A program made the position numbers and the translations under genes. From NCBI GenBank assembly GCA_977018835.1, contig OZ361260.1, forward strand, positions 2,294,001-2,358,000: a stretch of DNA of 64,000 nt, given 5' to 3'. This stretch comes from Minutocellus sp. GHC0000111. Lineage: Eukaryota. Shown here piece by piece: positions 3,362 to 62,272 of the stretch. Position 1 is the first letter of the stretch. Every line of letters begins with the position of its first letter. The notes beneath the pieces are model-generated. The model did no database searches, was not told the origin of the DNA, and saw nothing but the letters and a program-made list of their open reading frames with translations.

Positions 3362-5086
3362 CTAATTATCCATGGTTGGATCAGCAGGAGGAGGAGCGAT
3401 AATTTTCCCATCTATCCGAACCATGCCATTTTCAGTCGGCCTGAAATCCTTTCGCACCCCAACATGAATGCCTTCACCGTTTCCAAGAAAATCATTGTTG
3501 CCTTTTGCAACGATTACCTTCTTTGCAATTCTATGAGCCTGGATGTATGCCGATGCGATCTTCCAGTTTTCCAGCCCCATCCAAACTTCCTCCGCTGCAT
3601 CCCAAGTCTGATCCTCTGTCAAAACCTTCAGCCCTTCCCGATCGCGGCACAACATTGTATGCTGCTTTGACATGCAAGGGAAAACAGACAGATCAAGAAC
3701 ATTCATATGGGGCATTTGCGGGGCCTGAGGTTCCCAACGCCATCCCTTGTCCCGACAGTATCCTTCCACATATTCCACAAATTCAGTCTCGGCATGGGGC
3801 CCAGCATTGTCGCCCTGGAAAATAGGGACATAGCCTTCAAACTTTCCGGCAGGTCCGACCAAAGCCTCAACATCCGGAAATATCTTGTTCTCAAACAAAG
3901 CTTTCAGTGGGAACTTGGGATTATCAAGGGTGCCATGGCTGCATCCAGTCACCGCGCAATCCACAAGGTATAGATCGTCTTTCTTCCGAACCACCGGGCC
4001 GCAATATTTGATTCTACCATCTGCCTGCCGCACCGCCTCCCTTACCATCTGCCTCGCAATTTTATGCGCCTGAGCCCGAAAAAGTCCAAGCTTGAACGCA
4101 ATGCCGCCATTCTCAATGCTGTCAATAAAAGCCAAGGCAGTGACAGCCACCACCATGCACTTGTTGATGTGATTTCGGTGATATGCCGAGAAGGACCGAG
4201 GATCAATACCCAATTCTGCAACTTGCTTGGCATACGATCGAAGAACCAAGCCCCAAAACCACTTCTCATCGAACATAACAAGGAGAAACTTGCCACCGCC
4301 GAGCCCCCAATTGTTTCGGAATTTCCGCGCAAATGCCAAATGTTTCTCCATCTGATGTGTAGTAAGGAGAGGGATGATCCTTTCGGCATAGTACCGGAAC
4401 CCTTCCCGCGACATTATCCACCGCCGTATTGCCGAGTAGGAACACCAAAAGTTGACATCCACCTCCAGCTCCCGCCAAGATTCCCGAGGATTTCGTATCA
4501 GAGCATCAACAATAACATCTCGAATGTATGGCTGCATAGCCAGATGAGATCTCCTCTTCATCTCCCACATCGCCTTCTCAGATGCAGGTAGAGCACCATA
4601 CGCCTTCATCCATCCCGAAAATCGTGCACCATGCTCTGCGCTGGACAGCACCGAATAGTCCACCTTTGCCTGCTCCCTGCACTTGGCAATTGCAAAGAGA
4701 CATGGTGCAGCATACCGCCGGGTCGCCGTTGCAAGATCGTCGATGACAGAACGGAAGGCGGCCGAATCAGATGAATCATCGGCACTCGTTGGGAAGCAGT
4801 ATACAGGTCCAAGTATGCCGATCGCGTCATCGAAATGCTCAGCTTCGACTTCCGCCCGAGACACAAATGGATTGAACACATACTCACCGCTGTCTTGGCC
4901 ATCATCATTGACCAGGAGAAAACTCTCAAGATTGACGGGCCCGAGGATTTTGAGAAGCACATGCTCCTCAATGTCGTCAGTCGACTCGTCTGCCGGGCGA
5001 TAAGGGCCGAGAACATGCCCCTCGACATGGATGATGTCGTGGCAATAACTGAATCGGTGTACGACAAGGCCGCGGAGATGTTCCAC
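3362..5086 (-). CDS. Mariner-type transposase (plant-mariner-like, DD38D)
   Basis: Motifs MFDEKWF, FQGDNAGPH and QAPQMPHMNVLDLSVF; 38 residues between the second and third Asp. Start codon uncertain. Confidence 0.9.
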   Translation of the reverse strand: MEHLRGLVVHRFSYCHDIIHVEGHVLGPYRPADESTDDIEEHVLLKILGPVNLESFLLVNDDGQDSGEYVFNPFVSRAEVEAEHFDDAIGILGPVYCFPTSADDSSDSAAFRSVIDDLATATRRYAAPCLFAIAKCREQAKVDYSVLSSAEHGARFSGWMKAYGALPASEKAMWEMKRRSHLAMQPYIRDVIVDALIRNPRESWRELEVDVNFWCSYSAIRRWIMSREGFRYYAERIIPLLTTHQMEKHLAFARKFRNNWGLGGGKFLLVMFDEKWFWGLVLRSYAKQVAELGIDPRSFSAYHRNHINKCMVVAVTALAFIDSIENGGIAFKLGLFRAQAHKIARQMVREAVRQADGRIKYCGPVVRKKDDLYLVDCAVTGCSHGTLDNPKFPLKALFENKIFPDVEALVGPAGKFEGYVPIFQGDNAGPHAETEFVEYVEGYCRDKGWRWEPQAPQMPHMNVLDLSVFPCMSKQHTMLCRDREGLKVLTEDQTWDAAEEVWMGLENWKIASAYIQAHRIAKKVIVAKGNNDFLGNGEGIHVGVRKDFRPTENGMVRIDGKIIAPPPADPTMDN

Positions 5087-6000
5087 TCCTCAGTTACCTT
5101 CATCTACAAGTTCAACGGCGTGAAGCGGGAGCTAAAGAAGCTCAAGCTCATCCCGGATTGGCTGTGGTGCGAGATCCGGGACGAATGCATCGTACTGCCG
5201 ATCCGAGGCGAGTATCATGCCATCGTTCAAGATGAAGACGAGATGGAGGCCGAACCGTCGCGTCGCACGAACCACAGCCCCATCTCGTCTTGTTTCGCCG
5301 GTCGGATGAAGCGTTTTTCGGCAGAAGACGAACACGTCACGAAGAAACCCACCAAAACCCAATCTCGTTCGTCACCCATTCTTTGACCGTCCAACACCAT
5401 GGAGGTCCGTCGGCGTTGCGCCGGCGTATAACTATGTTTTCGTACCAAATACGCATTCATTATCATGTTTGGATATAGTTGAAGCTTACTGTGTCCTCAG
5501 ATTGGCCTCCGCTGCGTGTCAACGCCACGAACCATCGGCCTGCTTTTCCTCCATCTGTCGGCCGTTCGTTTCTCTGGGCTGGTGCCATTGCTCCGTCTTT
5601 GTGCTCGTCGTGCTCCCGTTGTGATGCCCCAGACCCTCTGGTACTTTCCCACGTTGTTGTTGATGATAAACTGCCGGGATTGCGCCGCACCCCCCGTATG
5701 ACCGACTCTCGCTGATCCCGACCGATCGCATCCCCACTCGACCTCCCGGAGTTCCGACGACAACAATTTTGCGCCCGAGGAGAGACAGACAGTGCTGGGA
5801 TAAGTTTATGCAACAATCAACCCGACAAAGGGACTTTTTGGTCTGGGAGATAAATGGGTGAGTTAAGAAGGACGTGATGTGTTTGTTTGGGTGTGCCATT
5901 TACTTTTTTGCTCAATCGCGACATGCTGTTTGTAAAAGTTGATTGGATCATGCAATTCATTTGTTGTTGTGTAGCAGCAGTGTAATTTCATTTTCTAATT

Positions 6001-6990
6001 TTATACATGCCCTGCTCCCATCTCTACATCCTCATCTCCATCGGTGGCCATCATGATCATTTGTTGGCGCTTGTCATCAGTTTCTGCTTTAACAGCTTCG
6101 GTCCTTGTCCTTTTCCTTGTTCTTGCCACCCGAGAGTTTCGCTCCCGCCTCTCCTCGACCTTTGGATTGGATGCCCTCTCCTCAGCCTTGAACTGCGCCG
6201 TCTGTTGGGCCTCATGTCCCTTGACGCCCTGAGTCCGACGATCTTCCTTAACGCCCTCTTGGTGGTGGGCTCGCTCTACAAACGATTCGTCGAGCCAACA
6301 GATGCCGCCCCATCCATTCTTCACTAGCCAAATGTGTTGGTCCAAGATGTGATCTTCGAGTAAGTGCCACTTGGGCGTTGTGCTAATGCCGATTGCCCGT
6401 GCTTGCTTGAGGGCACTTGCAATCAATGCTTCAAGCTCTCTCACAGCCTTCTTTGCCTCATCATCCCATTTCATGTGCCATTTCAGAAACCTGGAATGTG
6501 TTGCGTCAAGAGTGTGGAGCAAATTAGAGCAAGCTTTGCAGAGCTCTTTGATGTCGTCATCCGTCATGCCATCTTCCTCGCGATTGTGCTCTAGGAGAGC
6601 TCCTTTGGTGGAGGTGTCATGGTGGATGAACTCTGTTGTCCTTGGTTTCTTCTTGTTGTTGCCATCAGAAACATTAATGGACAAAGCTCTCCAGCATTCT
6701 GCCAGCACTGCCCTTATTTTACCTGAGTCGGCCGCCTCAATGCCGGCCTTTTTCAGGAAATGGAAGTGAGGGGCATCGTCGTCCTCGGCATCATCGACAG
6801 CTCCCATCTCTGGCTCGCCATCACCGTGCTTCTGACGACTCTTCTCAAAGCACTGCTGCATGCATGCTTCAAGTGCAGCGTCCTCTCTTGCAACATCAAC
6901 TTCGTCCTCATAAATGGGCACATAGTCCTCGTCTTCGTCGTCATCGTCCTCACTGATCTCGCCGGCCTCCGTCGTGGTCAGGGTGCCCAC
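6001..6990 (-). pseudogene. Transib/Chapaev/RAG1-like transposase C-terminal remnant
   Basis: TPKWHLLEDH...GGICWLDESFVERAH resembles the KxHxxxxH...E-x-x-ERxH C-terminal signature. No N-terminal catalytic region is recognisable; 6990-7800 holds only broken ORFs. Confidence 0.6.
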
Positions 6991-9483
6991 CGTCCCAACA
7001 TCGTCGTCATTGTCCCACCCATCGTCCTGGCCATTGTGTGCCCACCAGGGAGCTTCTGGGCCTCGAGCAACATCTGCCTGTTGATTTCGTAGTCCATCGC
7101 CGCATGTCCCACCGACACATGTGGTGCGACCGACTTGAGGAATGCATTACATGCCTTCGTCAAATTGAGCCGCGGCGGCGGTGTTTCGAGGCGAAATTGT
7201 TGCTCGACCGTGACCACGCATGTCGAAAGCCAGCCATCCATCCATCATCATGGAGAGCGTCGGCTGCACGAGGATTGACAGAACCGAGGCGAACAAACAT
7301 GCTCTCTTTTTGCATGGGGTTCGCTGAACGTCGTCGGCAAGGCAGTGTCTTGATGCCATTTCATCCCATCCATTCTGGTTGTCTGTCCTCACAAAAAACA
7401 CATCGTGGTCAGTCTTCTTCGTGTTTCTTCTTCTTCAAACCCAAGATGCCCGCAGTGTGCATGACGGCGCCGCACATGATGGGACTGCATCCCAACACAT
7501 TCATCAAGGAGTCGTTGTTGCCGATGAAATTGTAGTAATGAAGTTCCTTTCTGCGAAGACGGACGAGTGGTTCAGCCAGGGCGTCCTGCACCGCAACTCT
7601 CTGTCTGCGGCGTTGACCGCGGGATTGCGGCCGTTGTTTTTTTTGCTCATGGAGAACCATGGATCGAGACCAACTGGAACATCACCAGGATGTCGGGAGC
7701 ACCTGGTTGGTCTCGTGCCGTAATTCTCCCACACCAGCGCGAGATATCGCCTTCGTTCTGCACGTAGCGGCGGCAACTTGAATTTTTGCCGCGCCATGGT
7801 GGCTCGCGTTGGGCGCGCCGGTCGGTTGCTTCGCGCGCCGGCCGGCCACCGAAAGTGCGACCAAAAGTATGCGAGTCATCCGGCTGGCAGATGGTGCTGT
7901 GGAACGCGTCCATTTGATTAGAGCCGCTGAAATCTAAAGTCTTATCCGAATTATTGTTTCACATGAAGATAAATCAAAATTAGAGTAAAAATAGCCATTT
8001 TCTTAAATATTTCAGCATGACTATTCTTCGAGGCGCTTTTCAATCCCCTCGAAAGCAGTCAAAAACCGGGCGCTCGATTTCTCGCGAATCTGACCTCGTG
8101 CTGCATGTAATGAAAAACAAAGCAAACAGCCAAAATGGAACTATCAACTCGCGGTATCGGCTGCTCCGCTGTCTCCGGCAGCGGCATCGACACATTCCGA
8201 CATCATCGCCGGTTCAAGCGTGGCAACATGCGCAACGAATGTCAATGCATCCTCACGGGTCGTGCTTGATTTGCTGCACATCACGCGAGTCCACGTTCCA
8301 CGCTGGTGCTTGCTTTTGCGTCTGTTTCATCATGTGCCAAGATACAGACGAACCGCTTGCGCCGCCGCCTTGGCCGCCACCAATGCTGGTCTCGTCGTCG
8401 CGCATCGTTACATTAGCTGTGTCTTGTATCTGATTGCCGCCCATTGGGTGCCGTATCTGATGTTCCTTGCTCGGCTCCACGGCCATGGCTCTTCCCGGCG
8501 AACTGAACGACGAACGGACCGTACTTAGGGGGTGTGCATTGCTGTGACATCCAAGACTGTTTTAGTAAGCAATGTTGTTGACTCCACTCCCCTAGCTTTC
8601 TGTTTGTCAGAATTTCTGTCTGAATGATTTTTGAAGTTTCTACGTCGACTACGTGACGTCATCATCTCACCCAAAAGGCCTTTTGCATTCTCACTCGCTC
8701 GACATCCAACAGAGCAGCAGTCCCTCCACTTTCATCGGCAACGGTATCTACCACCGCGCCGCCTTGACCAACAAACCACCGCCGCCGCTCGACGCCGCGT
8801 CGGAAGAGGAGCTCGTACAGCGCGCGAATACGTTCGCTCCCGCGCACGTTCTGGTGAGTGCTGTCTTTCTTTTCGTTTTCGCTCTGTTCCATTTTGCTGT
8901 TTCTTCTGTTTGGAATTCATCTTTGGTTCTCCTCCCACCTCTCACGTCCCAACCTACCACCCATCGTCCTCAATACCATACCCCATGCCCCACACCATCC
9001 ACAGGCCACAGCTGCCATATCACTGTCGTCCGTCGGTCCCGTTCCTTCGTACGGCCCGACCAACCACCCCACGTCCGTTCGGTCCGGCCGCGTATCCAAA
9101 AGTCCCCACCGGTATTCAACTCGCCGACCATCTGCAACTTCTGTCCGACTGTACAGCGTCAACGCCGCCGTCATATCCGATACCTCCTCGGTAAGTTGTT
9201 GATGGAGGGAACGACCGCGGCATCGCACCGATGGCTGTATTGATTGTCTGTGGTGCTAGTACGCGTCGGCGTCTGCGTCGGCAGTCTGCCGTGGTCCATC
9301 GTCGGCGGCCATCAACGTCGTTGCTACATTCTCGGTGATGGCCAAGAGATATTGCAATAGTCGTCTCATTGTCCAGCCCGTTTGCTCTTCGTCCCTCGTC
9401 GACACCCTAAACTCCTATCCCCTTTCTCCAACAGACAAACTGGTTCCTCATCACGCCGCATCATCACCATCACCACCATCACG

Positions 9484-16996: not shown

Positions 16997-19900
16997 CTAC
17001 TCTTCTACCGCGCCGAATCGAGTACTTGCGGTGCTGGCCTCATCATCGGAGGCGGTTGTGGGCTCACCGTCTAATGTACCTGTACCTTCCTCTGTCTGCC
17101 CCATCTCTCCCACATGCAAAGATGATGCCGCGACAGATTTACTTGCTGTGCTGGCGTCATCATCTTCGTTGCCTTCTACTGGCGCTACTACTCCCGATGT
17201 TTCTGCCGATGGCCCTTGCTCAACACTGCTCCTGGCTGTGCTGGCCTCATCGTCACTGGCGGCTTCCGGCTTTCTATCTTCAACTTGTTCCGGCAAGCTT
17301 TCATTATCCGTCATCATGGTATTGTTGACGAGATCTTGAGCTTCTTCGTCGTCGGTCGACTCTTCCTCCCTTTTCCCGACGAGAGAAGTTGTTTCTCCCT
17401 TCTTCTTGAGAGGGCCAAGGGTGTCGTCGTCGGTACCTGCTGCAACTGCGCTAGCCTTGTCGCTTGGCCGAGGTCCTCGGCGACCACGGATGATGAGAAA
17501 GGCGGAGATGGCAATAAGAGTGAGTCCGCCAACAATCGAACAGGACAAGATAACGATGGTATTTGACCCCATTGAATCGGACGACTTTCCCTCGTTGTCA
17601 GCACTACTGCTTGAAACGGAACCACTCGGCTCAGTCGGCGATGCAAGGTTGTATAGCTTGGCTGGAACATCCGAGCTAGCAAGCACAGTTGCAACACGCG
17701 CATCTGGTACATTGCTCTTTATGTCGTAAAATACTTGATGACTCAATTCATCCATCGCCTGCAGCTGCATGGACTGAACAGCGGCTTCGGATGGAAGCTG
17801 CTGATTTTCTTGCTTTCTTTTGAAGGAAGCGACGCCCCCAAAGACTGCCTTGTAGTTCTTGCCTTCCCTGAAGGTCCTACCCTTGAGGGTAAGGCGCACT
17901 CTATTCGGCTTGGCGTACGAGTTATCTTCAGAAGCTGCGAATATTGCCTTGAGCTCCTTCTTCAGCGTCTGCGCAGTGAAGCTTTTGAGATTATCGTCCA
18001 GGTATGATATCAGCTCAGCCTCAGAAAGATGTCTCCGGCGGACGGTGGAATCGTTACCATTGAGCCGAATGGCAACGACAAAGTCAGAGAGGTCGGCAAT
18101 GCCTTCGTCTTTCTCGAGGGCAGCGAGTTCTCCCTCGTCCTCGTCTTCATCAGACTCGGTTGGCTTCATCGTAACAACATTGGCCTCATCGGAAGGAAGC
18201 TCGGTAGCAGTGCTGTCATCTTTGACTGGGAGTCCATCCTTGGAGAATCTAGTGATGATCACATTCTTGGACGCGATACCATCTTCACGAACTTCGCCGT
18301 TTCCGACGGGCAGGGCTTCAAAGTCATGAGTTTGCTCACCCCCATCGTTCCACGAGTCAAAAGTGTAAGTCGAACCATCCATGGTCTCATCATACGCCTC
18401 GACTTCAAAGATATGGTTGTCCCACGTGATGACCTTCTTTGGAGTCACATGAACATCTCCATAGGCAATGACCTCTAGACCTCTCGGAACGGAATCGATT
18501 AGAACTTCCACCTTGCGAGGATAAATCTTGCGACTGACAGTTGTAGAAAGACCCTGAGAGTCAGTTGCTGTGAGCAAAATCTCGAGATAGCTCGTCAGTG
18601 ACGCGTCAAAGTCTTCTGGTTCGGGTGCCTTGATGATTAGGTTGTTACCGGGCGTCTCAGGATCGACCCAAGGGTGATAATGAGTATTGTGATGCTGTCG
18701 AACCTCCCAAGTGAGATGGGAATCATCCAGAAATACTTCCTCGCCATCGGTTGCGGTGCCAATGAGCTCAAATTCTTGGTCAACATAAAATGTAGTTCCC
18801 TCGGCGGGGGTCAAAATGACAGGTGTAGGAGGGGTGTTTTCGACCTCGATGCGTATCTCCGTCTGCGCTTTTCCACCCTTCCCGTCCTTGACGGTAAGGG
18901 TGGCGTAGTGAGTTCCGGCTTCGTTGTATTCAAAAACGGTTTTAGACGAGGTAGAGTCAACGTCACCATCGCCATCAACATCCCACTCATAAGTCAGCTC
19001 GTCGCCGTCGGGATCAATGGAACCTGTACCATCAAAGTTGACTCGAAGAGGCTTGAAACCGAAGGTTGGGTCAGCGTAGATCTCGGCCTTTGGTCCGCGG
19101 TACCGGTAAACTCAATTTTGTGTACACCGCGCATATCGCCGTCGCGGGAGACATAATACAGAGCCTGTTTAGACTGTCCGGTCTTCTTATCGACACCGGA
19201 TGGGCCAAACTTCATATAGATGACGGCTTCGTGGGCCGAAAGAACCTTGATAGTCTCGGCGAAGGGGGAGACGGGCACTTTACACTTAGGCCACTCGCAC
19301 CCCTCACCATTCGGAGTCATCACATAAAAGCCACCAATGGCATAGTCGGCTGCAGGTGCATCAAAAGAGAGAGTAAAGTGAGGAATATTGATATAGAAAT
19401 GCATGAAAATAGGCATCACTTTCCTGTCCTCTGCACATACCATAGATATAAGCATCCTGAAATGCTGCAGGCCATCCAGCGTCATTGGGGACAAAAGCAC
19501 CGGCGGTGACACAGCCACCATGCTCCTCGTCGTGGTGATACCAGTGCACAGGGTCGGTATACCCCTCCTCTTCCGTGGGCGGAGTACACTTGGTCTCCGA
19601 GTCCTCGATGCACTTGCCCGTTCGGCGAGGGTATCCATAATTTGCTCCGGCGTAGCCAGTACCACCTCTGTTGATCTCTTCCCAAACGGCTCGGCCCACT
19701 TCGTTTATGTAGTACTCCGTAACACCATCGGGCGTGTTGGGATTGAAAGCAAATCGAATTGGGTTGCGATGTCCCCGGCTGTAGATCTCCTTGCACTTCA
19801 TGGTGGCCTTGGGAGCCAAGCCGTCCTTACCACAGACGACGGCATCGTCATCGTTGGCGTAGGGATTGTCTGAAGGAATCTCACCATCATCGGTCAAACG

Positions 19901-36313: not shown

Positions 36314-38446
36314 ATGGGTTGCTCTTCTGCTTCCCCCCTCTTGGCCATCCTGGCCCTGGCTGGACTAACATGTGCGTTCGTCCCGCAGCCTTCGACGCAG
36401 CACCAAAGCATGAAACAGCATGTGCCGCAATTTGCGGAATCGGCACAAGCTCTGCATGCGACGATACCAGATGAAGACGTTGCCTTCCTTGATTTTGACG
36501 CCGAGGGGTTTGAGGATGATGGTGGCGATTACGATGACTTTGACGAGGGTGGCGCAATGTACGAAGATGAAGCTGATATCGATTTGGTATCTGGCCGTGG
36601 ACTTGTGGAGATTGACGGCATGACGTTCGATGACGACGACGAGGATGACAGTGCCGCTAGTGACGCTCCTGCCCAGCCCATCCGCCGTCAGCGCCGGGAG
36701 AAGAAGGTTCCCATCCTTGCCATCGTTGGTCGGCCCAACGTCGGCAAATCGGCGCTTGTCAATCGCATTGCCGGCACGCAGTCTGGCGGTGCCATCGTGG
36801 CCGATGAGGAGGGCATCACCCGCGATAGGACGTATCGGAATGCCGAGTTCTTGGGCGAAAAGTTTCAGCTCGTGGATACCGGTGGTCTGGTCTTTGATGA
36901 CAACGACGCGCTCTTTGCCAGTGAGATCCGTGAACAGGCCATGGTGGCCATCGAAGAGGCCGCGGCTGTCATCTTGGTCGTCGATGGGCAGGTTGGTCCG
37001 ACCATTATGGACGAGCAGCTTGCCAGTTTCCTCCGGAAGGAAATTACCAAGCAGATTCCCGTCATTCTGGCCGTCAACAAGTGTGAGAGTGAAAAGACCG
37101 GCGGCGTTGCTGCCGCAGAGTTTTGGGGGCTGGGTCTTGGTGAACCTCATCCTGTTTCGGCTCTGCACGGTGTCGGCACGGCCGATCTGCTCGAGGACGT
37201 CTTTGAAAACATTGTTGAGAAGGGATCTGCCATCAAGGGCTTTGGTACCAAGGTGAAGGAACTCGAGGCGGCCAAGGAGGCCATTATGAATCAGTCTGAT
37301 GAGCCTCTCGAGGGTGAAGACGAGACGAACGTCCTACTTCGTCAATATGGACTGGGAAGAGACGAGAAAGATGTCATTGAGCGATATGAAAACGCCTTGG
37401 CTGCCTTTGACGACGAAGAGAAGCAGGTAAGTTTTGGCTGGCAGCTGGCGAATTAGAGCATGTGATTTTGTATTGAATTTGTGTCCTTCCAAATAATTTA
37501 CTCACCCACCCTTTCTTTCATTATCAATCTATAGGAGGAGATCAACATTGCTATCGTTGGCAGGCCCAACGTCGGCAAGAGTTCCTTGCTCAACAATATC
37601 TTTGGTGGAGCTCGTGCCATTGTAAGTGATGTGGCCGGTACTACACGCGATTCGATTGATGCGGTCATGGAACGTCCTGCTCCTCCTGGTAGCGATAAGG
37701 CCCCCACCATCTATCGGTTCGTGGATACTGCGGGCATTCGTCGAAAGGGAAAGGTTGAATTCGGACCCGAATTTTTCATGGTTAATCGGGCTCTGCGTGC
37801 CATTCGTCGTGCCGATGTTGCGCTCCTCGTAATGGACGCTACCGCCGGCGTTACGGAACAAGACCGGGTTCTTGCGCAAAAGATTGCTGACGACGGGCGG
37901 GCATGCGTCATCATCTGTAACAAGTGGGATGCTGTAGTTGACAAGGACGAGACCACATACGACAAATCTGTGAAATATTTCCGTTCGGAGTTGCCACAGG
38001 TTCGTTGGGCTCCCATCCTTTTCATCTCGGCGGCGACGGGCCAGAGGGTGGGAAAGATTTACGGTGCCATCGATGAAGCTCTCAAGGCACATCGCAAGAT
38101 CATCTCAACAGCCATTCTGAACGAAGTGCTGCGTGATGCCATCCTTTGGCAGCCTCCCCCGGCCAAGCGAAATGGTGCTCAGGCCAAGATTTACTACTGC
38201 AATCAGGTGTCGACCCGACCACCGACTATCGTTGTGTTTGTCAACGACCCCAAGCTTATCAATGATAATTACCGGAGGTATTTGGATCGCAAGTTCCGAG
38301 AAAGTTTGGACGGCTTCGAAGCGACACCTATCCGTTGGATCTTCCGCGGCCGAAGGGCCCGTGATATTCGCCGGGCACGAAATATGAATGGTGATCCTGG
38401 CGATGGCGGTTCCGGCGTCAGTACACCTTTCCCCCATGCATATTAG
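36314..38446 (+). CDS. der: Plastid ribosome biogenesis GTPase Der/EngA
   Basis: Exons 36314-37426 and 37535-38446. Two GRPNVGKS P-loops, DTGG/DTAG, NKCE/NKWD, C-terminal KH-like domain; TCAFVP targeting motif. Confidence 0.97.
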
Positions 38447-38521
38447 GCGAATGAGTATCAATAGTAAGAAATCCTGTTGTTTAGTACATGAAAATACTTT
38501 TTCTAGCTACGTAATAGTCAC

Positions 38522-40555
38522 TTATTCGTAGCCCCGAGCTGGTACGATGTTCGATTTTGTGCCAATGGATGGCCAATCCTCTATCTTCCCAGATTTTTTG
38601 TTCTTGACCCTGATGAATGGACCCATGTGTAGAGATTGAACCTCCCAAATTTCATCCATTCGATCCTCGGTCGTTATTAATCTGCCCTTCTTGATGCCCC
38701 TCTCTGAACTACCAAAGCTATTTTCACATAAAGTAATCGCCCCAAGCTCCAACGACGCCAATTTCGTTTCCAGTTGAGGGCTCATTGTTTTTGGAGGTGA
38801 AAACCTCACACCGATTTTATAGCCTTGGGCTTGAACCTGCTTCAGAATTTCGTCAAAGCATTTCTTCTGCGATTCGGTGTCATCCATTGGAACTGGCACA
38901 CTTGTCAATTGAGCATTGTATTTCGGAACCTTGCTGCATCCTAAACTCTTGTACAGCTTATTGAAATCAAGCTTGGGGCGAGGACGCATTAGTCGATCTT
39001 CTGTGGAGGATTCTTTGCCCTTTGGAACCTCCCATACCGGGACAAAAGAGAAAGGCTTATCGCTGCTCTTTGGATCATACGATCGTCCCCAATATAAACG
39101 ACCACTGAGAGGTCCAGAACCATCTTTGGGCGGAACAGCTATCCGACGTAGAGTGGGATCCCGCTTCCTAAAATCTTTCTGAAGATTGGTAAGCGTGGTC
39201 GACTGTTGGACGGTCACTAGACTGTCTTTTGCATCGCTGCCTTGTTCGATTGCAGCGTCCCAAGCATCAGCGCCCTGGTGGGCAGAGAAATCTTTGCTCG
39301 AAATATTGCAAAAGTCTAAAGGCGATGCTTCCCCTTTAGCCCACTTTGTTTCCTGGTACTGCTCTTCGTCAATAACGTCGACGCATCTTCCCACAACAAA
39401 GACCGTGTCGAGGTAACATTCGCGAATATTTATAGAGCAGAATAGAATTATTGATCCAACCGGGAGCGTGCGCATCTTCTTCAACAGGAACTGCTTGCAC
39501 AGTCCATATCTGAATTCTCCACCAGTCAGTACGAGTGGGTCATTATCACGGATGATTGCTTCCACTGGATACTTGGGACAAAGAAGAGGCGCATATACAC
39601 GTGTCCAAGGTTTGTCCAGTGTAGCAGCTGGCACATCGGTTGATCGAGCTATTTCAGTTGCATATCCAGCATATTCCGCAGCATACCGCACAAGTTTGGT
39701 ACTAGGCTTCTCCCCGACCTTCTTAATCACATGAGCTTTCGTCTGCATTAAGTACCTTTGATCACCTTTTGGTGTTGAGAACACACTGCCCTTTCCTCGC
39801 CAGACGTTCCCATCTTTCAGTGTCAATTCGATGTTCAGAGGATTTTCAATAATATTCGCAGTGTTGGCATTTTGAGGACCCTTGAATGCATCTCTCTCTA
39901 TGCCCGGATGACCAAATATAACACATTTCGGGGTTTCCTGCAATTTTCTCCTGCACTCCAATAGTTCCTCCGCCTCCATCATTTCTTCCTCTCCATTATC
40001 ATACTTCACTCTCCAATGCTCCTTAGAGTTCCCACTGCCTTCGTCTGCATCTAACATTGCCAGGTAGTGTGTCTTTACTTCGCCATATATCAACCCGCGC
40101 CCGTCAAAGAATTTTGCGACTTGGTCGTCAACGAATCTTCCCTTTTTCGTCTTCGCCTTTCCTTTTGCCTTTGCTTTCTTCGATCCGGCCTTCTTTGGCT
40201 GGGGCTTCTTCGATTCGTCATCTTTCTCTGAATTAGTAGACTTCTCTTCCCCCTTCGCTTTATACGAATCATCAATCTTCTTCACATTTGTCGCATCTTG
40301 TTCCTCTTCCAAGGCGATTGCATGCAACAATTCCTTTCGCTCCATGTCTTCGGAATCTCCGTCATCGTAGTCGATCCTCCAGAACTCGAGGTCGTCATTG
40401 CTATCGTAGCGAATTATTGTGCCAAAAAACTTCGTCAATTCTCCATTCTTCCGGCCGTCGTCAAAGAAATACTTTGCCACCCGTCTGCCCACGAATTGAT
40501 CCCCATCCCGTGGCTCCATCTTGATGCGCTTCGCAGCTCGTCGCGGTGATTTCAT
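38522..40555 (-). CDS. Two PTM/DIR17-type Tudor domains fused to an uncharacterised bacterial-like domain
   Basis: VGRRVAKYF...FFGTI...WRIDYDDGDSEDM and VAKFF...WRVKYDNGEEE; Lys-rich linker; then DNDPLVL-FRYGLCKQ-LPVGSIILF-LDTVFVV-FSFVP. Confidence 0.75.
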   Translation of the reverse strand: MKSPRRAAKRIKMEPRDGDQFVGRRVAKYFFDDGRKNGELTKFFGTIIRYDSNDDLEFWRIDYDDGDSEDMERKELLHAIALEEEQDATNVKKIDDSYKAKGEEKSTNSEKDDESKKPQPKKAGSKKAKAKGKAKTKKGRFVDDQVAKFFDGRGLIYGEVKTHYLAMLDADEGSGNSKEHWRVKYDNGEEEMMEAEELLECRRKLQETPKCVIFGHPGIERDAFKGPQNANTANIIENPLNIELTLKDGNVWRGKGSVFSTPKGDQRYLMQTKAHVIKKVGEKPSTKLVRYAAEYAGYATEIARSTDVPAATLDKPWTRVYAPLLCPKYPVEAIIRDNDPLVLTGGEFRYGLCKQFLLKKMRTLPVGSIILFCSINIRECYLDTVFVVGRCVDVIDEEQYQETKWAKGEASPLDFCNISSKDFSAHQGADAWDAAIEQGSDAKDSLVTVQQSTTLTNLQKDFRKRDPTLRRIAVPPKDGSGPLSGRLYWGRSYDPKSSDKPFSFVPVWEVPKGKESSTEDRLMRPRPKLDFNKLYKSLGCSKVPKYNAQLTSVPVPMDDTESQKKCFDEILKQVQAQGYKIGVRFSPPKTMSPQLETKLASLELGAITLCENSFGSSERGIKKGRLITTEDRMDEIWEVQSLHMGPFIRVKNKKSGKIEDWPSIGTKSNIVPARGYE

Positions 40556-40703
40556 TTTCCGGTTACTGTGCGTGGACGGGACGTGTTGCCTTTTTTAATG
40601 GCCGCGGCGCCCATGGCAAAAAAAATGACGTCGCGCCCGCTGCTGGCGCGAGAGGGCGACGGCCAGACTTCGAAAACAACATTCTGCCTTCATTGTCGGC
40701 AAG

Positions 40704-41567
40704 ATGGATACAAGGAAGGACCTGGTCGGAGCCGTTGTGCTCTTGTGTGTGCTACTGATCCAAGTGTCATGCGCAGCTGCGTTTTCCGCTGCCACAAGGC
40801 GTGATGTGCTGAACAAGGCAGTGGTAGTTCCAGCGGCTACTTTCGCTGGTGTTCAACCGGCAAATTCCGCCCAAACGACGGCCGAGGCGATTCGAAGGAC
40901 GGCGGCTGGTATTCCTGGCTACGGCCAGCCCGATGTTTACTACCCAACCTCATATCTGGGACGATGGAAGGCTACAAAGACAATCGTGGTCAGTGACAAC
41001 CCGTATCTCAACGCAAATGGCTTGCTTCCCATCTCCCTCAACTTCGAGATGAAATTCATATCGGTCGATGGAGATTCCAAGGAGGAGGCGGAGAACGCCG
41101 TGGGTGGCAAGGTGGTGGCAGACCGCGCATTCAACGAGCAATCGTATTATGAAGCTTTTCGAAATGCAGTGTCGTCAAATGGCAGGGGGCCACCCGCGTT
41201 GAGATCAGCTGTCTGGGTGCCAACCAACCCGAATGTACTAACTTCAACCTATGATGATGGCACATCACAGGAAATAAAGGTGACGAAAAGAGCAGCCACG
41301 TTGGAGCAAGACGGTGAAGGGACCGTGTCTTCTTCTGAATACCGACGAATTAGTGACGTTGGAGCAAATGGCATTCCTGTTCTTTCGGCGAGCAGATCAC
41401 TAACGAAGTGGAGAAGGGACGGGTCATCTATTGAGGCAATCGAAGTGGTCTATGCAGACGGAGTGATGGGAGATCCCATGGGTGGAGTCGGCGGTGGTGC
41501 AGCTGGCAAGCAAGGTGCTCCGACAGTCAGTTCCAAGTCAAGATTATCGCTGCAGAGAATACAATAG
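40704..41567 (+). CDS. Plastid (probably thylakoid-lumen) conserved protein, DUF6816-like
   Basis: AAAF motif, RRDVL twin-Arg-like segment, IPGYGQPDVYYP, VADRAFN, NPNVL, SEYRR. Confidence 0.75.
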   Translation: MDTRKDLVGAVVLLCVLLIQVSCAAAFSAATRRDVLNKAVVVPAATFAGVQPANSAQTTAEAIRRTAAGIPGYGQPDVYYPTSYLGRWKATKTIVVSDNPYLNANGLLPISLNFEMKFISVDGDSKEEAENAVGGKVVADRAFNEQSYYEAFRNAVSSNGRGPPALRSAVWVPTNPNVLTSTYDDGTSQEIKVTKRAATLEQDGEGTVSSSEYRRISDVGANGIPVLSASRSLTKWRRDGSSIEAIEVVYADGVMGDPMGGVGGGAAGKQGAPTVSSKSRLSLQRIQ

Positions 41568-53809: not shown

Positions 53810-56800
53810 ATGACGAATGCCGACAACACTCGGACGCGATACTCGAACTCGAGGTCATTTACTACTGGTACCGGCATCGGCGGCACCAGCGCGACCGGCC
53901 TTGTCCGAAGAGCGCGATCGTGGCACGGAATTCATGACGACTTTGACGACGACAGTGATGATGACTCATTTTTCAACTCTTCCCCTTCAATCTCCGCCTC
54001 CAGATCCTTCTGCGAAGATGACCTCGAGTATTCGTCCTCCAGCAACCTCAACAGTCTTTAGCTGGCGACGACAAAGACACAGCCATCTGCGACACCTCTG
54101 GTCCGGGCAGTCAAATTGGGCTGCCGATATTTGGTCCGCATTTCCATCGTTGCACTTGCTCTCCTCCAGCTCACGGCATCCCTGAGCACATGGAAGGCGA
54201 AGATGGGCCTGGGCAATTCACTCGACGTCGAGAAAAGACCGCTGGTATCGGCATCAGGTGACTGGTCGACAGCAGGCGCTGGCAGTGTCCGAGGAGCGTT
54301 ACCTCCAAGTCCATCGCAACCAACAAGAAGAAGCACGACAGAGCGCTCGGCGTTGCATCAAGTTTCCTATCAGGATCATCGTCAGCAGCAGCAACATCGC
54401 CAGCTTCGCTCCAGCATCGGCTTGTGGGAATTGTCCTCGACGCCTCTGCCATCGAGAGCAACATTCTCAACTTCCTTGTCGACATCGCCTGCCGTCACAA
54501 TGTAATGTCCCATGTATTGTCCAGCAAAGGTGCTTCCGAGGCCAGTAGCGCCGTCCGCATTTTGATGGAGGAGAAATATAATTCAAATTCATCAGAAAGT
54601 GCAGAGCAGTGCGCTGAAATTGTCTTTGCTACCGAGCCACCGCAGCTCATTGCGGGCATTGACAACCGCATCGATCGAATTTCGAGATTGAGAGACTACC
54701 AGCGTGATATGCTCATGACCGATGGAGATATATCTCCAATCGATGGCGGTAGCAGCAACAGCAACGGTGTTGTGATTGTTGCCGATTTGGATTTGCATAA
54801 GCTCCCTACAGTGGAGAAGGTCATGCAGGAGGTTCACTATGCAATCCATTCCGATGATGGAGCTGACGTAGTCTGTGCAGCAGGGATTATGCACCGCCCT
54901 TTTGGATACTACGATACATTTGCGTGAGTAGAATAGTACCTTTTGATGAGTCAGTTGGACAATCTCTCATCTATTTACATTTTGGGCATGGAAAGCCACT
55001 CAACTATCCTTCTTATCTTTGGTTTTTCTGTCTACTCTTTGCCCAGGACTGTCTTGCTTCCCAGCACCTTCGTTTATCCAGTATCTGGCCGTTTTGATGA
55101 AAGCATACACGATGATGAAGAACGGCAATTCATCGTTTCGTCCGATGGGTCTTTTAGCCAAGAAGATTTGCTTCGTCACTTTGAGCAGATCAGCCAAGAA
55201 GAATTTGGTGGGCGCCCTGTTCCAGTACGATCCTGCTTCGGTGGATTAGCCATTTACAAATCCGAGGTCTGGCACGAACCCAAGTGCCGCTACTCGTCCT
55301 GGCAAGACCAATGCTCGCCGGATGCTGTACGCTATGCCAACATCGAAGATGGACGTGCGTGCGAGCACGTCACGTTTCATGCTTGCCTCAGAGAGCACCG
55401 GAAAGGTCTCGCCGTTGCAGTCCAACCAAAGCTCATGCCGATGTGGGATTCTGCTGCTCAAAGTCTTTCGTCGAGTCTTCGATCTGGGGAACATCTCCTC
55501 ACCGTTCATTCTGATACGAATGGAGATAATGGTAGCCAAGGGGGTGGTAACTTCAATTCCACCGAGAGTGGTCATCAATTTGACCACGATCATCTATCAA
55601 GCTCAGATGTCAGATATCGAATGAGAATCCACCCAGTGACTGGCAATGTCCTTCTTGAAGAAATGGGGGCAACTTCGGCCGGCGACAACAAGATCATTTG
55701 GAGCGCCCTTGACAATAGCAACACCACAAGCTTAATTTCCACCGCCAACACTCCTTACACTGAATGGATGAATATGCGCCACGCCATACAGTCAGTCCTC
55801 GTCCTTCGTGATGATGGCAAGCTTGTCCTTGAGAGAGAAGTCCACAACACAGCTCAACAGATATGCAATCCATTGGATATGGCCTGCCGTTTCGAGGTTT
55901 GGTCCTCCACTACTTCGGCGATAGGCGATGGTAACGGCTCGAACAAGAATGCGTTTCTCCATCTTTCGGATCAAGGGACTTTGACTCTCCAAGATCGAGA
56001 CAGTGGCGAGCTTTTATGGTCGGCAACGCAAGAAGATACCTGGTCTGAATGTCCGTCGTATATTCCATCAGGCTTTCAACTGCACGAGGGCGACATACTC
56101 TGCTCTCCCGGCGACACCTACCGCTCAGGGATTGACTCCAACGGATTCTTTGTGCTCAGAAATGACGCAACGACGAAAAACGAGAAGGCTTACATTCCAC
56201 TCACAGGTCTCGACGAGATCGCCTCAGACTCGTCTTCGAGTACGATGACAGCGCACATTCAAGGCGACGGAAATCTTGTCATTCATAGTTTGAGTAATGA
56301 TGGAGAGGATCGCGATATTGTTTTGTGGTCATCGAATTCTGCCTTTCCAGGATCTGAGGGATCCCGCGTTGCATTGCATGATGATGGAATTCTTCGCATT
56401 GTGACAAGAAAGGGGATCGTACTGCGTGAACTCATCCCTAAAGGTCCATCGCCTGCTTGTCCCACCATACTTCCAAGCGGTGGGCGGCTCGAGGCTGGCG
56501 AGCACTTGTGCTCACATTCTGCCGTCGCGCCTAGCAGCAATGTTCCCATGTACAAGTTTGGTCTATCATCTTCTGGTATCCCTGTACTCGTTGTCACAAA
56601 AGAAGTCGAGCAATCTCAAGTTGTCTGGGTCGCCAGCGTCAATGTCACCAGTACCAGCACATCTCTGACATTACAGGACGATGGCAATCTCGTCCTCTAC
56701 GATGAAAGCTCCGTCGCTCTTTGGTCGTCCAGTACTGCAGCTTTCGGCGCAGTCGTTTCATTTTCCACTGATGGCGGTCTTCAGATGATCACTCCTGATG

Positions 56801-59800
56801 GTTCGGTCGTCGCGTTGTTATCTGAAACTAGTGGTGAATTTGAACGTCCTCCTACAGAAAGGGTCATTCTGGAAAGCAATGATGCCTTGACTCCAGGAGA
56901 AATCATTTGCTCCCCAAGTGGAAACTTTTGCTTTGGATTAGATGCTGATAAGGATCAGCTGTGCCTTTGGAAGGTCGCTGGTGGGGATAATTCTGCATCG
57001 TCCACTTCTCTTACCCCCGACAAGGATTGTATCTGGTCAAAGACCTTCCAAGATATCGATGAATTCTCCGCATCATCTCTGATTATGCAAGGTGACGGCA
57101 ATTTAGTCCTCGTCGCCGATGGTGGTTCTGACAGGACTTTGCACTGGTCCAGCGAGAGCCATGGCAGCGCAAATGAAGACTCCTATATCGTCATTCGCGA
57201 TTATGGAGCTGCGGAGATTGTCAACAAGCAAGGAATTACCACGTTCAGTATCGCCGGAAGTGATGTTTGTCCCCGATGGCTTCTTGGCGGTCAGTCTCTG
57301 CGAAACGATGGAGAATTTGTTTGCTCGGCCGATTCTCGGTATCGATTGGGCTTGGGTTCCGATAGTAGTCTTGCCATATATGACCTTCGTAGCCAGGAGA
57401 AGGTGTGGGAGACGAGCACGTGTTGCGACGATGTCTCTGCATTTCTTCAAGCAGATGCCAACTTCATCGTTCGTGGTTCCTTTGACGACCTATGGTCTAC
57501 CGATGCAACGACCAACGCCACCAGTGGAGTCGCATTGAGGCTATCCGACAATGGCGATGCTGAAATTTTGGACATGGATGGGTCTCTCGTTTGGAGTTCT
57601 GCGGCAGCCAAAGATGACAACAAAAGAACTTTGCGCGCCGCTTCACCTCTTCCAGGTTGCGATGCCGTAAATTTCAGGCCAGAAGACGACGATTTCCGTA
57701 CATTCGCATTGCCCAAGAGGTCCACGAAGCACCATCGCATTGTGTTCATGTCTGAGTCATTTGCCAGTACTAAGCGGAATCGAGTACTTTCTCATCGTTG
57801 GGACTTTGGTGACGCTCCCCAAATCCATCACAAAACGATAAAGGCACAGGACAATGTCCCGTCAGCTTCTCTTGGCGATGATACTAACATTACTGAGCAG
57901 TGCGAGTACGATGACTGGCAGAGTAGATCATACTTGGCCTGCAACTCGGTTCACGAGAGCACAGCCTTCCGAGAGACCACCACATTCCTTGGCCAAGGGG
58001 CTAACAACCAAGGATGGGCAATGTCTAGCAGCACGTCCTCTCCAGGAGTCACCGACGAATTTGTTCTCAAGAGACAGGTCGTCCACAATACATTCTCCCC
58101 AAAATACTACGAAAGAGCTCGTCTTGAGTCATTGGTTATGCAGAGAATGACTTCTTCCAGAAGAATCCTTGATACTTATGGGTACTGTGGTACGTCAATC
58201 ATGAACCAGAAGGGATGGCGAGAAATGTCATCTCTTGGAATAGAACAACAAACTATCTCCCCGAAGCAAATGCTCCAGTACGGACTTGGTGTTTCGCAAG
58301 CCCTCGCAGACCTTCACGAGGGCGGCATTTTGCACACGGACTTGTCCGCGTCGAATGTTTTGATTGGGCCCAAAATGGAGGTGATTCTGCACGATTTTGA
58401 TCAGGCAGCACTTTTAACTCACGGAGAAGGTTCAAGATCATCTTGCGGTGTCCGCATGCACGACGAGAAGTGTGATCACTACCGTTCTCCTGAAAAGTGT
58501 CATTTCGATAATCAAGTTTTGACAACCAAGTCGGACGTGTATGGTCTCGGGGGGTTGTTATATTTCCTTCTATCCGGTGCCACTCCGTATTCGTTCCCCG
58601 AGATTGACGATCTAGAAGTCGTGCGCTCCAAGATTCGAAGAGGGACGCTACCGCAATATCCTCTTCATATTGAGTTGAGCAAGAGCAAGTCCATTACAGC
58701 ACTCAAGGAGATCGCTCATCAATTCCTAAGGTACGAACCAGAAAATCGACCGGAGGCTAGAGAAGTGGCGAAACTCATCGAGGCAGCCCTTTTGAATTAT
58801 GACGAGGAAGAAGAGAAGGAGTCGTCCAATGAGATCCTTGCCCCAGGAAGTGTACTTGACGGGAAGTCATCGCACCTTCAATCATCCAACTCCAGTCACA
58901 CCTTTGGCTTTGACCATGCAAGCGGTGATCTGTCGATCTGGCATAATGATAAGATCATTTGGTCCCTGGGCCTGTGCTGCCAGGGCGATGAAAAACTCGC
59001 TACCTTCAACTTCGACGGCAACTTTGTCGTTGAAGGCAAAGGCGATGTCATTTACGATACCGGAACAGATTACGGTGGCCAATGGGTCGGTGCCGTGATG
59101 TTCGTCGATAACGATGGCAAAGTCAAGCTCAAGAATTACCATGGGTATGAGACAATTCTCTTTGATCCATATTCAAGGTTCCTCCGCCGAGGCGATATGC
59201 TGAATCAGACATCTGAGCGTCTCAATTCAGCAGAATCGAATCATACCTTTGGTTTCGATCTTGCAACAGGTGATCTATCGATCTGGCATAACGATCAGAT
59301 CATTTGGTCACTTGGATTGTGCTGCCAGGGCGACGATAAATTTGCCACCTTTACTTCCGATGGCAACTTTGTCGTTGAAGATAGAGGCGGTGTCATTTAC
59401 GATACCGGGACGGACTATGGCGGCCAATGGGTCGGGGCTATAATGTTCGTCGATAACGATGGCAACGTCAAACTCAAAAATAATCTCGGCCAAGAAACTA
59501 TCGTATTCGGTCCTTCTGAAAGCAACGCAGGTACCAGCAATTTCAAGGAATTGAGCAGCGAGCCTTGGTTCCCACCTGCCATAGTTGATTCCAGCACAAT
59601 GCACGGAAGGGTCTTCACAGGCTACCAAGGTTGGTTCACAACGCCCTGTGATGACGGTCTGAAGCGATGGCATCACTGGAGTGATCGGTCTACACCGGAC
59701 AATGAAACGCTAACGATTGACATGTGGCCTGACTTGGATGAATACGACGACGACGAGCTATGCGAGACTGATCTTTTGTATGGAGACGGCACAAAGGCGT

Positions 59801-61729
59801 CAGTATTTTCTTCCTATAATCCAAGGACGGTCGATAGGCACATCCGTTGGATGTCGGAGTATGGCATCGATGGGCCTTTCGTCCAGCGATTCGTCACCGA
59901 CATAAAAGTCTTTCGTCACATGAGAGATCACGTTCTAAAGCTTGTTCAAGCTTCATCGGAGCGTTATGGCCGTGTCTTCTCCAACATGTACGACCTCACC
60001 GGAGCCGAGAAAGGTATTCAGACATTGGAAGATATCAAGAGAGACTGGAAGTTCTTAGTCGATGGCCTCAAGGTTACAGAAAGTTCACGTTATCTCAATC
60101 ATAAAGGCCGACCGGTTCTAGGCCTGTTCTTTGGCAAGCCCAGCAAGAGTCCTCTCTCGGCCAATGAGGCCTTGGAGCTGATTGATTGGCTTCAAAACCA
60201 TGATGAAGAACGATACCGAGTCACCGTGATTGTTGGTGGTTTGGAGAAATCATGGCGGTCAGATCCTGATGAGCAGTGGATGCCTGTTTTCAACCAGGCT
60301 GATGTGATTAGCCCATGGACTATTGGTCGGTACTTCGATCAGGAATCTGTTGACCATCATGGCAAGCGTTATCTGATACCGGATGTTAATCACTGCCACG
60401 AGAATGACCAAGACTATCTACCGGTAGTATTCCCAGGATTTTCGGCCAAGAATATCATGCCGGGCAAGCCGTTGAATGAAATTCCTCGTAACGGAGGGCA
60501 GTTTCTCTGGCGTCAATTACTACATGCCTCCCGATCGAAAGCAAATATGATCTTCGTTGCCATGTTTGATGAGGTTGACGAGGGTACGGCAATATTCAAA
60601 ACCGCAAGCACCGCATCTAGAGCCCCGTCAAATACTAACTTTGTTACGTTGGATATTGATAAGGATACATCCCACGAGATGAACCTTCCGAGCGACTTTT
60701 ACTTGCAACTTGTCGGAGAAGCGAAGAGGCTTCTCAGCGAAGGGGCAGAATTCCCATACACATACGAATATCTTTCGCGTCCCCAAGGAGATGACAACGC
60801 CACAAGCAAAGACAATAATGGCTGGAACGACGTTTACAATCTTTCTGACCCGAGTGACATGGCGCCCTGCGGGGCCCACAAGTGCTTCTTTTTGTCTGCG
60901 TCCAATCCAAATCGAACTGGATACCTAGTGCAGCAGGGCGATCCTTTCCGCCGTAGCGAGAACCTACAATCGCAATACGAATCCACCGTGTATCTGGAAT
61001 CAAAGTATGGGACGCGCCACTTCCTGCTGGGTCCACCTGCCAGCGTGGATGTTCCTGACAGCTTAGTGTCCCAACTCAACAAACAAGTTGATAGGCGCCA
61101 CAAGTACTCAGCCCTGGAACCTATCGTCGTCCAAAAAGTCAAAGTTGCCCCAAGACAATCAATGATGATGCTGGGATGCCACCTCGATAGACAGCCACAA
61201 ATACGGGAAGACATTCAAAACTTCCTCGAGACCAATATTGACAATATCACGGAGTTTTCTTTGCAATTTGAAAGGGAGCTCTCTTCAATTATCCAGGTGA
61301 TGGAAAAGGAGCCGTGGTACGCGCGGGACTGGCAAGCTATGGTTGACCGGCACGGCCACCTATACAGTATTGATATTGCGCCCAGACTTAGCAGCACCGA
61401 TGGCAAAGGAGATAAAATGGGATACACCACGTTAGATTGGATCGACCTCTGCTACGAAATGTTCCAGGACTTTGTTAAGGTGGCGACGGAGCGTGGTGCT
61501 CATCATCCGGAAGGAGAACTTATCGCAGCAGCAGCAAGGAATACCTCGTTTCATTCATTTCGAGGTGGAAAGGATTTTGATTTGCTTGCCCTCGATCCTA
61601 CTAACGATTGTGCGGCGGGTGCTTGCACTGTCGCATCAGCTGACAATCCATATATTGGGTACGAAGTAACCAGCACAGAATCGCCGAAACTTACCGAGAG
61701 TTGGGAAGTTGCCAGGACTCTGACAAACA
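53810..61729 (+). CDS. Giant multidomain protein: TM anchor, CAP59-like glycosyltransferase, bulb-type lectins, protein kinase, lectins, GH71/99-like hydrolase, C-terminal domain
   Basis: Open from 55047 to the gap; intron 54924-55046. DLDL, VRSCFGGLAIY, CEHVTFH; repeated QGDGNLV; HTDLSASN/DFD; GYQGWF...MFDEVDEGTA. The 5' part has TAG at 54059-54061 and a frame break at ~54420. The 3' end lies in or beyond the gap. Confidence 0.85.
58831..59514 (+). repeat. Intragenic tandem duplication of a lectin domain (345-bp period)
   Basis: HTFGFD..GDLSIWHND.IIWSLGLCCQGD...YDTGTDYGGQWVGA occurs twice (His codons at 58897 and 59242). Confidence 0.92.
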
Positions 61730-61929
61730 NNNNNNNNNNNNNNNNNNNNNNNNNNNNNNNNNNNNNNNNNNNNNNNNNNNNNNNNNNNNNNNNNNNNNNN
61801 NNNNNNNNNNNNNNNNNNNNNNNNNNNNNNNNNNNNNNNNNNNNNNNNNNNNNNNNNNNNNNNNNNNNNNNNNNNNNNNNNNNNNNNNNNNNNNNNNNNN
61901 NNNNNNNNNNNNNNNNNNNNNNNNNNNNN
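61730..61929. other. Assembly gap (200 N)
   Basis: Run of n characters. Confidence 1.
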
Positions 61930-62272
61930 CCATGCAGTAATTGGACGGCGCGTTGAGCCATTCCTGCAGTACGATAAGAACGCGTTGCTTGTGTGACGTC
62001 CAACCCACACACACGGACCCCAGAGGATCAAAGCCTACGACAGCAGCTTCCCTTCCTTCCAGGAACTTCCCGCCGCTTGGTCGAGAAAGCAAAGAGGGTG
62101 AACCAGACGTGCGTTGTTCTTGGAACGAACATTGGGTGCACACTCCAGTTCCCTTGATAATTGTCATCATTTTGCATTCCGTATCTTTCAAAGCATAAAA
62201 CGAGCAAAGGGCGGCCCAACTTTTTGCACTGTACAACACAAGGACGTGACATCCAACAACACAACGTCAGCC

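Follow-up and report, generated by a model that had tools for sequence, protein, structure and literature searches.

The closest described systems are bacterial. The available part of the published account (bioRxiv 10.64898/2026.02.25.707755) describes BapA (GenBank PX942695) as ORF2 after Brig3 in an anti-phage operon. BapA is a glucosyl-5hmC hydrolase, modelled as ASCH-like with ZmASCH as the structural comparator; it requires D101 but not Q252, and its authors leave open whether D101 serves in recognition or in catalysis. The same part of the account names residues N50, S52, E55, W100 and D127 of Brig3. Brig1 (PMC11078745) is a related glycosylase acting on glucosyl-5hmC. PUA-like domains (EVE, YTH, ASCH and kin) are modified-base binders in the portion consulted of PMC7641849, and Nmad2 is given, in the consulted part of PMC13092281, as part of the validated defence system DS-4. 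Here we describe what is most likely a Tudor-fused eukaryotic form of the bacterial anti-phage base-deglucosylase family of BapA, the family itself being already known. Our literature search, whose scope ended short of the BapA-plus-diatom pairing and of the figures and homologue tables of the preprint, returned no eukaryotic BapA relative; the word stem 'eukaryot' occurs a single time in the preprint text, on another matter.

The window, that is the whole 64,000-nucleotide stretch of Minutocellus DNA that was analysed, contains a reverse-strand reading frame without interruption that encodes a protein of 677 residues, here called the window protein (ORF list and translation; Table 1). The gene is flanked by an EngA-type GTPase gene on one side and a DUF6816 gene on the other (Pfam); these neighbours have introns and signal-plus-transit-like N-termini, which makes a diatom or close heterokont a likely host. 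Three full-length homologues (P0002–P0004) are 90–92% identical over the domain. The GC3 of the BapA-like domain codons is 0.44, slightly under the range of 0.46–0.65 seen for 14 other frames in the window, and gives no clear sign of recent transfer. In the two matching runs, window 38404–40765 is covered by two haplotypes at similar depth, with about 8–11% of letters differing between them. The second haplotype has single-base losses at 38921 and 40133 (codons 545 and 141), thus one copy of the gene looks broken; the end of the homologue P0005 is as expected from such a frameshift. This haplotype also lacks 40556–40709 (154 bases upstream), which is the short region that the gene has in common with the divergent DUF6816 gene. 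Two metatranscriptome runs hold only 151- and 163-base pieces of the gene, and we do not count these as evidence of expression.

Table 1. Features of the gene for the window protein (positions in the window)
Feature	Position	Strand	Remarks
Single-ORF gene	38522..40555	-	Tudor, basic linker, Tudor, BapA-like PUA/ASCH-fold domain (predicted), beta-rich tail; 677 aa
Tudor domain 1, PTM/DIR17-like, residues 23-77	40325..40489	-	best PF21743 stretch (Pfam)
Lysine-rich tract, residues 116-140	40136..40210	-	K/R count; may be a linker that binds DNA, or a nuclear signal
Tudor domain 2, about residues 142-201	39953..40132	-	second PF21743 stretch; limits estimated from sequence
BapA-like domain, residues 208-593	38777..39934	-	matches family profile positions 2-281 of 286; ~50-residue insertion near 424-476
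D339 codon	39539..39541	-	putative counterpart of BapA D101
Beta-rich C-terminal tail, about residues 601-677	38525..38755	-	aligned in 6/11 rows of the eukaryote-type alignment

Two parts of the window protein match PF21743 (PTM_DIR17_Tudor), with E 7e-11 and a score of 42.2 bits where the curated cut-off is 27.2, in agreement with the two PTM/DIR17-like Tudor repeats proposed in an earlier sequence-only reading of this DNA. That reading also listed basic NLS-like tracts. A K/R-rich tract is present at residues 116–145, with 9–11 K/R in every 20 residues, and may serve as a nuclear signal. Tudor domains generally bind methylated histone tails or chromatin, and the Tudor pair together with the basic tract would tie the window protein to chromatin. 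The motif series given in the same reading for a domain of ~380 residues is present in full and in order: GHPG.E (215–220), EY (294–295), NDP (338–340), FRYGLCKQ (348–355), GSIILF (367–372), LDTVFVV (382–388), LYWG (487–490), FSFVP (502–506) and RP (524–527), the gap from NDP to F.Y being longer than written. A C-terminal tail of ~75 residues, common to distant homologues, had been overlooked. It has no Pfam match and appears, by eye only, to resemble SH3/Tudor domains. In several distant homologues the N-terminal segments give sub-threshold Pfam matches to Tudor families (Agenet, E 0.028 for P0023; Tudor_2, E 0.045 for P0140), which suggest Tudor-likeness; a profile of the window-type Tudors did not pick these segments up.

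None of the Pfam, NCBIfam and PADLOC families searched was assigned to the BapA-like domain, and a PADLOC match in 1 of 83 family members (E 0.008) was disregarded. Word-based searches found close relatives at 67–94% identity plus a few distant ones. Against 1.8 billion representatives, the profile search returned 91 matches at E ≤ 0.001, mostly proteins of ~300 residues; 95 homologues were scanned against Pfam and none scored above a cut-off. Bacterial and archaeal genomes were scanned from an alignment of 14 sequences; 183 of 199 pattern matches were confirmed and 80 loci kept, spanning Chloroflexota, Actinomycetota, Bacteroidota, Bacillota, Cyanobacteriota, Myxococcota, Planctomycetota, Pseudomonadota and others. 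A profile made from these 80 bacterial-genome proteins alone recovers the window protein with E 7e-15 for a database of 1.8 billion and reports none of 11 reversed control sequences. In view of this score and the silent controls we regard the link of the domain to a bacterial family as solid, as the sequence-only reading had supposed. Searches of PDB sequences with the family or partner profiles gave no match, and a PDB sequence search gave one weak match (8zen, E 0.005, 93 residues). The plasmid search yielded a single match. Among viral sequences there were no matches with the algal profile, none among annotated phages, and only two loci with the bacterial profile; a viral origin of the domain was rejected on these counts.

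The eukaryote-type homologues group together. In a FastTree tree of 152 rows, the ten sequences labelled eukaryote-type and P0077 share one branch (support 95); in an IQ-TREE tree of nine eukaryote-type and 31 hand-picked bacterial-type rows, the eukaryote-type rows are one side of a branch (SH-aLRT 99). Both trees of the domain are unrooted and no donor lineage stands out. Identities drop to 22–30% in the eukaryote-type rows, whose named members are from Triparma verrucosa, T. strigata and two transcripts of the MMETSP collection. An ORF adjoins the homologue P0031, and its product resembles what we take to be a green-algal plastid enzyme. The simplest reading would be one old transfer from bacteria to eukaryotes. 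Horizontal acquisition, as previously proposed, is hence plausible and apparently old, and the accompanying idea of recruitment to chromatin draws solely on the Tudor domains. We note that in one eukaryote-type sequence (P0140, L126:4891-6492, in the 15-member cluster of P0032) the halves of the domain are swapped, the C-terminal part preceding the N-terminal; this is possibly a circular permutation, or two misread exons or genes.

A gene of ~250 residues recurs next to the bacterial members, in most cases immediately upstream, with the two genes overlapping at stop and start. Of the 80 genome loci, 28 contain it and 52 do not; in 26 of the 80 it is adjacent and on the same strand, two of these being fusions. 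The 78 metagenome loci, gathered separately with a different pattern and including near-duplicates and three eukaryote-type loci, carry it in 36 cases (adjacent in 33, absent from 42). The background frequency is 2/401 sampled genomes and 0/39 unrelated loci, and the two partner genes from the genome sampling have no family gene within 1.5 kb. The partner profile, built from 21 of the 28 genome loci carrying the partner, found no such gene within the 64-kb window. The partner model (pLDDT 92) has UDG-superfamily structures as its top 12 VIA matches (best Z 9.6, rmsd 3.9, 176 aligned), and Foldseek places it in the uracil-DNA glycosylase superfamily with probability 0.99 at E 0.0035. The invariant columns of the partner include N50, S52, E55, W100 and D127 (L014 numbering); these five coincide in identity and numbering with the Brig3 residues named in the available account, and the alignment was made before the Brig3 paper was seen.

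The glycosylase and BapA-like pair occurs in many phyla and has been fused at least twice independently, which makes the bacterial survey useful in itself. Two in-frame fusions are found in Peribacillus (L027:7164-9584 and L035:2842-5166), where the Brig3-type glycosylase and the BapA-like domain are followed by a C-terminal domain of ~200 residues without a Pfam match; P0121 is a further fusion. In one subgroup a second small, unnamed domain is encoded alongside the glycosylase and BapA-like genes or in the space separating them (L081:1460-2608, L078:7280-7960 and P0121). Upstream of the fusion in L027 lies an ADP-ribosylglycohydrolase gene, a reported neighbour of Brig1 in the consulted sections of PMC11078745. 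In a Methylococcus genome an SRA-domain gene is located directly 5′ of the BapA-like gene (L059:6938-7975).

The AlphaFold2 model of the algal domain, from an 83-row alignment, has a pLDDT of 82 and a pTM of 0.87. A VIA-align comparison with 48,161 chains returned 23 matches with Z ≥ 2, and all 23 were read as PUA-like, of the EVE/THYN1, YTH, ASCH, McrB-N and VcaM4I types. The scores are low: the best match has Z 4.5 (rmsd 5.2, 133 aligned), THYN1 EVE bound to 5mC DNA has Z 4.2 and ZmASCH (5guq) has Z 3.7. Foldseek against the PDB and viral models found nothing at E ≤ 0.001. The domain is predicted to adopt a PUA/ASCH-type barrel, the weight lying in the uniformity of the low-scoring matches. 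The BapA family is marked by two beta-barrels; the model of the algal domain has additional strands outside the barrel that was matched. This predicted fold and the base-modification biology of the bacterial gene context keep the modified-base theme of the sequence-only reading in place. The algal domain shares the barrel of its model with EVE (THYN1, VcaM4I), YTH and ASCH domains but is two to three times longer. Neither the window protein nor its homologues have a Pfam match to EVE (PF01878); an EVE profile gave a weak partial match over the Q...LR.L..GS.ILF stretch (E 0.007), which was not reproduced with a genome-only profile (E 0.14). Tudor and SRA readers of the UHRF1 type offer a parallel, with a tandem Tudor next to a PUA-like DNA-base domain in one chain. 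Unlike UHRF1, the window protein has no PHD, RING or ubiquitin-like domain, and its PUA-like domain is of another, probably enzymatic, family.

The D339 column is Asp in all rows that cover it (72/72 bacterial-type and 10/10 eukaryote-type). In the bacterial rows (67/67) this invariant Asp sits at a median position of 105 (range 75–139; 43/67 within 95–110), and 36 of the 67 have a late Gln at a median of 148 residues past it, against 151 for the D101–Q252 spacing in the available account of BapA. By position, D339 would be equivalent to D101. Nine positions (H216, E220, E294, D339, C353, Q355, D383, Y488 and Q549) do not vary among the eukaryote-type rows that cover them. A His of the bacterial type (65/65 rows) is replaced by Asp 265 in the window protein and is His in 0/8 eukaryote-type rows; a near-invariant bacterial Trp and a near-invariant bacterial Glu (67/70 rows each) correspond to Ala 292 and Ala 296.

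To judge from the available account, the algal domain thus resembles BapA in its predicted ASCH/PUA-type barrel, in an Asp matching the essential one near domain residue 100, in a late Gln at similar spacing and in having bacterial relatives encoded directly after a Brig3-type glycosylase. It differs in that the window protein is eukaryotic, carries two Tudor domains, a C-terminal tail and the ~50-residue insertion, and lacks both an adjacent glycosylase gene and the conserved His, Trp and Glu. We infer, with high confidence, that the bacterial pair is of the Brig3–BapA kind and that the algal domain is a BapA relative with D339 in the place of D101. This family identity derives from gene order, fold and residue numbers and not from comparison with the BapA and Brig3 sequences; the Brig3-like partner, the ASCH-like fold and the position of the invariant Asp are what make a eukaryotic Tudor-fused BapA relative the most likely interpretation.

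In the mechanism we favour, with confidence about evenly balanced, a likely BapA-family enzyme mounted on a Tudor pair would act on nuclear DNA, flipping out a modified pyrimidine that bears a sugar and releasing the sugar with Asp339. The Tudor pair and basic linker would hold the protein on chromatin in the nucleus. As substrate we propose a hydroxymethyl-pyrimidine that is glucosylated, or glycosylated in another way, and that belongs either to host DNA or to the DNA of invading viruses. The Brig3-type glycosylase would receive the uncovered base in bacteria; its role in the alga may fall to a glycosylase of the host, or the stripped base may stay. The main rival to such an eraser is a non-catalytic reader of the same ancestry with catalysis lost, which would bind a flipped modified cytosine (5mC, 5hmC or sugar-carrying) and link a DNA mark to a histone mark, like SRA or EVE; we consider this somewhat unlikely. 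A reader would suit the best structural matches, which are themselves readers (THYN1 EVE with 5mC DNA, YTH, McrB-N and VcaM4I; roles from the consulted portion of PMC7641849), the replacement of the His, Trp and Glu seen in bacteria, and the lack of a glycosylase partner nearby in the window, but it sits less well with the D101-matching Asp and eight other polar or aromatic positions being unchanged even in divergent eukaryote-type rows. Since the role of D101 is left open in the available account of BapA, the conserved Asp leaves the choice between reader and eraser unsettled. We think it improbable that the domain works like ASCH or YTH on RNA or a different nucleic acid, with no relation to glucosyl-DNA, or that the gene is dispensable, lineage-restricted and decaying. 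In favour, the YTH and ASCH matches score no more than 1 Z unit away from EVE, one haplotype carries frameshifts and lacks the 154 upstream bases, and eukaryote-type homologues are few among the 1.8 billion representatives; against this, the bacterial partner has a DNA-glycosylase fold, and intact versions of 659–680 residues occur in several clusters, in addition to the MMETSP transcripts.

It is very improbable, in our judgement, that the domain belongs to Nmad2 (or Nmad3), the label attached to it in the sequence-only reading. Nmad2 and Nmad3 are likewise patchy bacterial families in a base-modification or defence context; UDG genes share operons with Nmad2 too, being annotated in 4 of the 10 plasmid regions viewed, the motif order P..F.G / C[KR] / G[DS].[ILV] is shared by eye, and a cluster of the ESM Atlas in which 26% of the members are Nmad3 scores 0.84, which we treat as a lead only. 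However, PF18753 (Nmad2) and PF18754 (Nmad3) match neither the window protein nor any of the 95 homologues (Pfam). Profile–profile probabilities are 0.1–0.8% when three family profiles are each compared with the Nmad2 and Nmad3 profiles, six comparisons in all (0.1% for Nmad2 and 0.5% for Nmad3 among them); the Nmad profiles, of 13 and 7 sequences respectively from fetched loci, are too thin to speak against a remote shared fold. The UDG neighbour of Nmad2 also differs from the partner of our family (E 0.024), and the operons are unlike. The Nmad2 label was dropped on the Pfam and profile–profile results, and BapA is likely the closer relative. On plasmids, Nmad2 genes (L097–L106) recur in a TIR-Nmad2-MazG-UDG operon arrangement, which in some cases also includes SIR2, kinase or radical SAM genes.

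A fuller evolutionary account is tentative and, we think, on the doubtful side: a bacterial anti-phage deglucosylase would have been taken up by marine algae, lost its glycosylase partner and been fused to chromatin readers as an eraser of a sugar-on-DNA mark. If this is true, an undescribed glycosylated base would exist in algal chromatin or in viruses infecting these algae, algal nuclei would contain a sugar-modified DNA base together with its eraser, and eukaryotes would have reused another bacterial defence enzyme. Eukaryotic sugar-modified DNA bases are mainly represented by base J of kinetoplastids, and we know of no described enzyme that removes its sugar. Glycosylated bases in the DNA of diatoms did not come up in our literature search, which was aimed at other questions. 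BapA has been described only recently, and a eukaryotic version with chromatin readers makes the sugar-on-DNA idea directly testable.

Other frames in the window were also annotated. A frame of 2339 codons (54937–61956, +) combines a protein kinase with a mannose-binding B-lectin and has a sub-threshold match to glycosyl hydrolase 99. A frame of 704 codons (16997–19111, -) contains a PKD domain, the rest of its body being unannotated. Remains of mobile elements are suggested at 3362–5089 (-) and 6001–7146 (-) by a sub-threshold transposase-like match (Tc3 HTH) and by weak similarity to gag.
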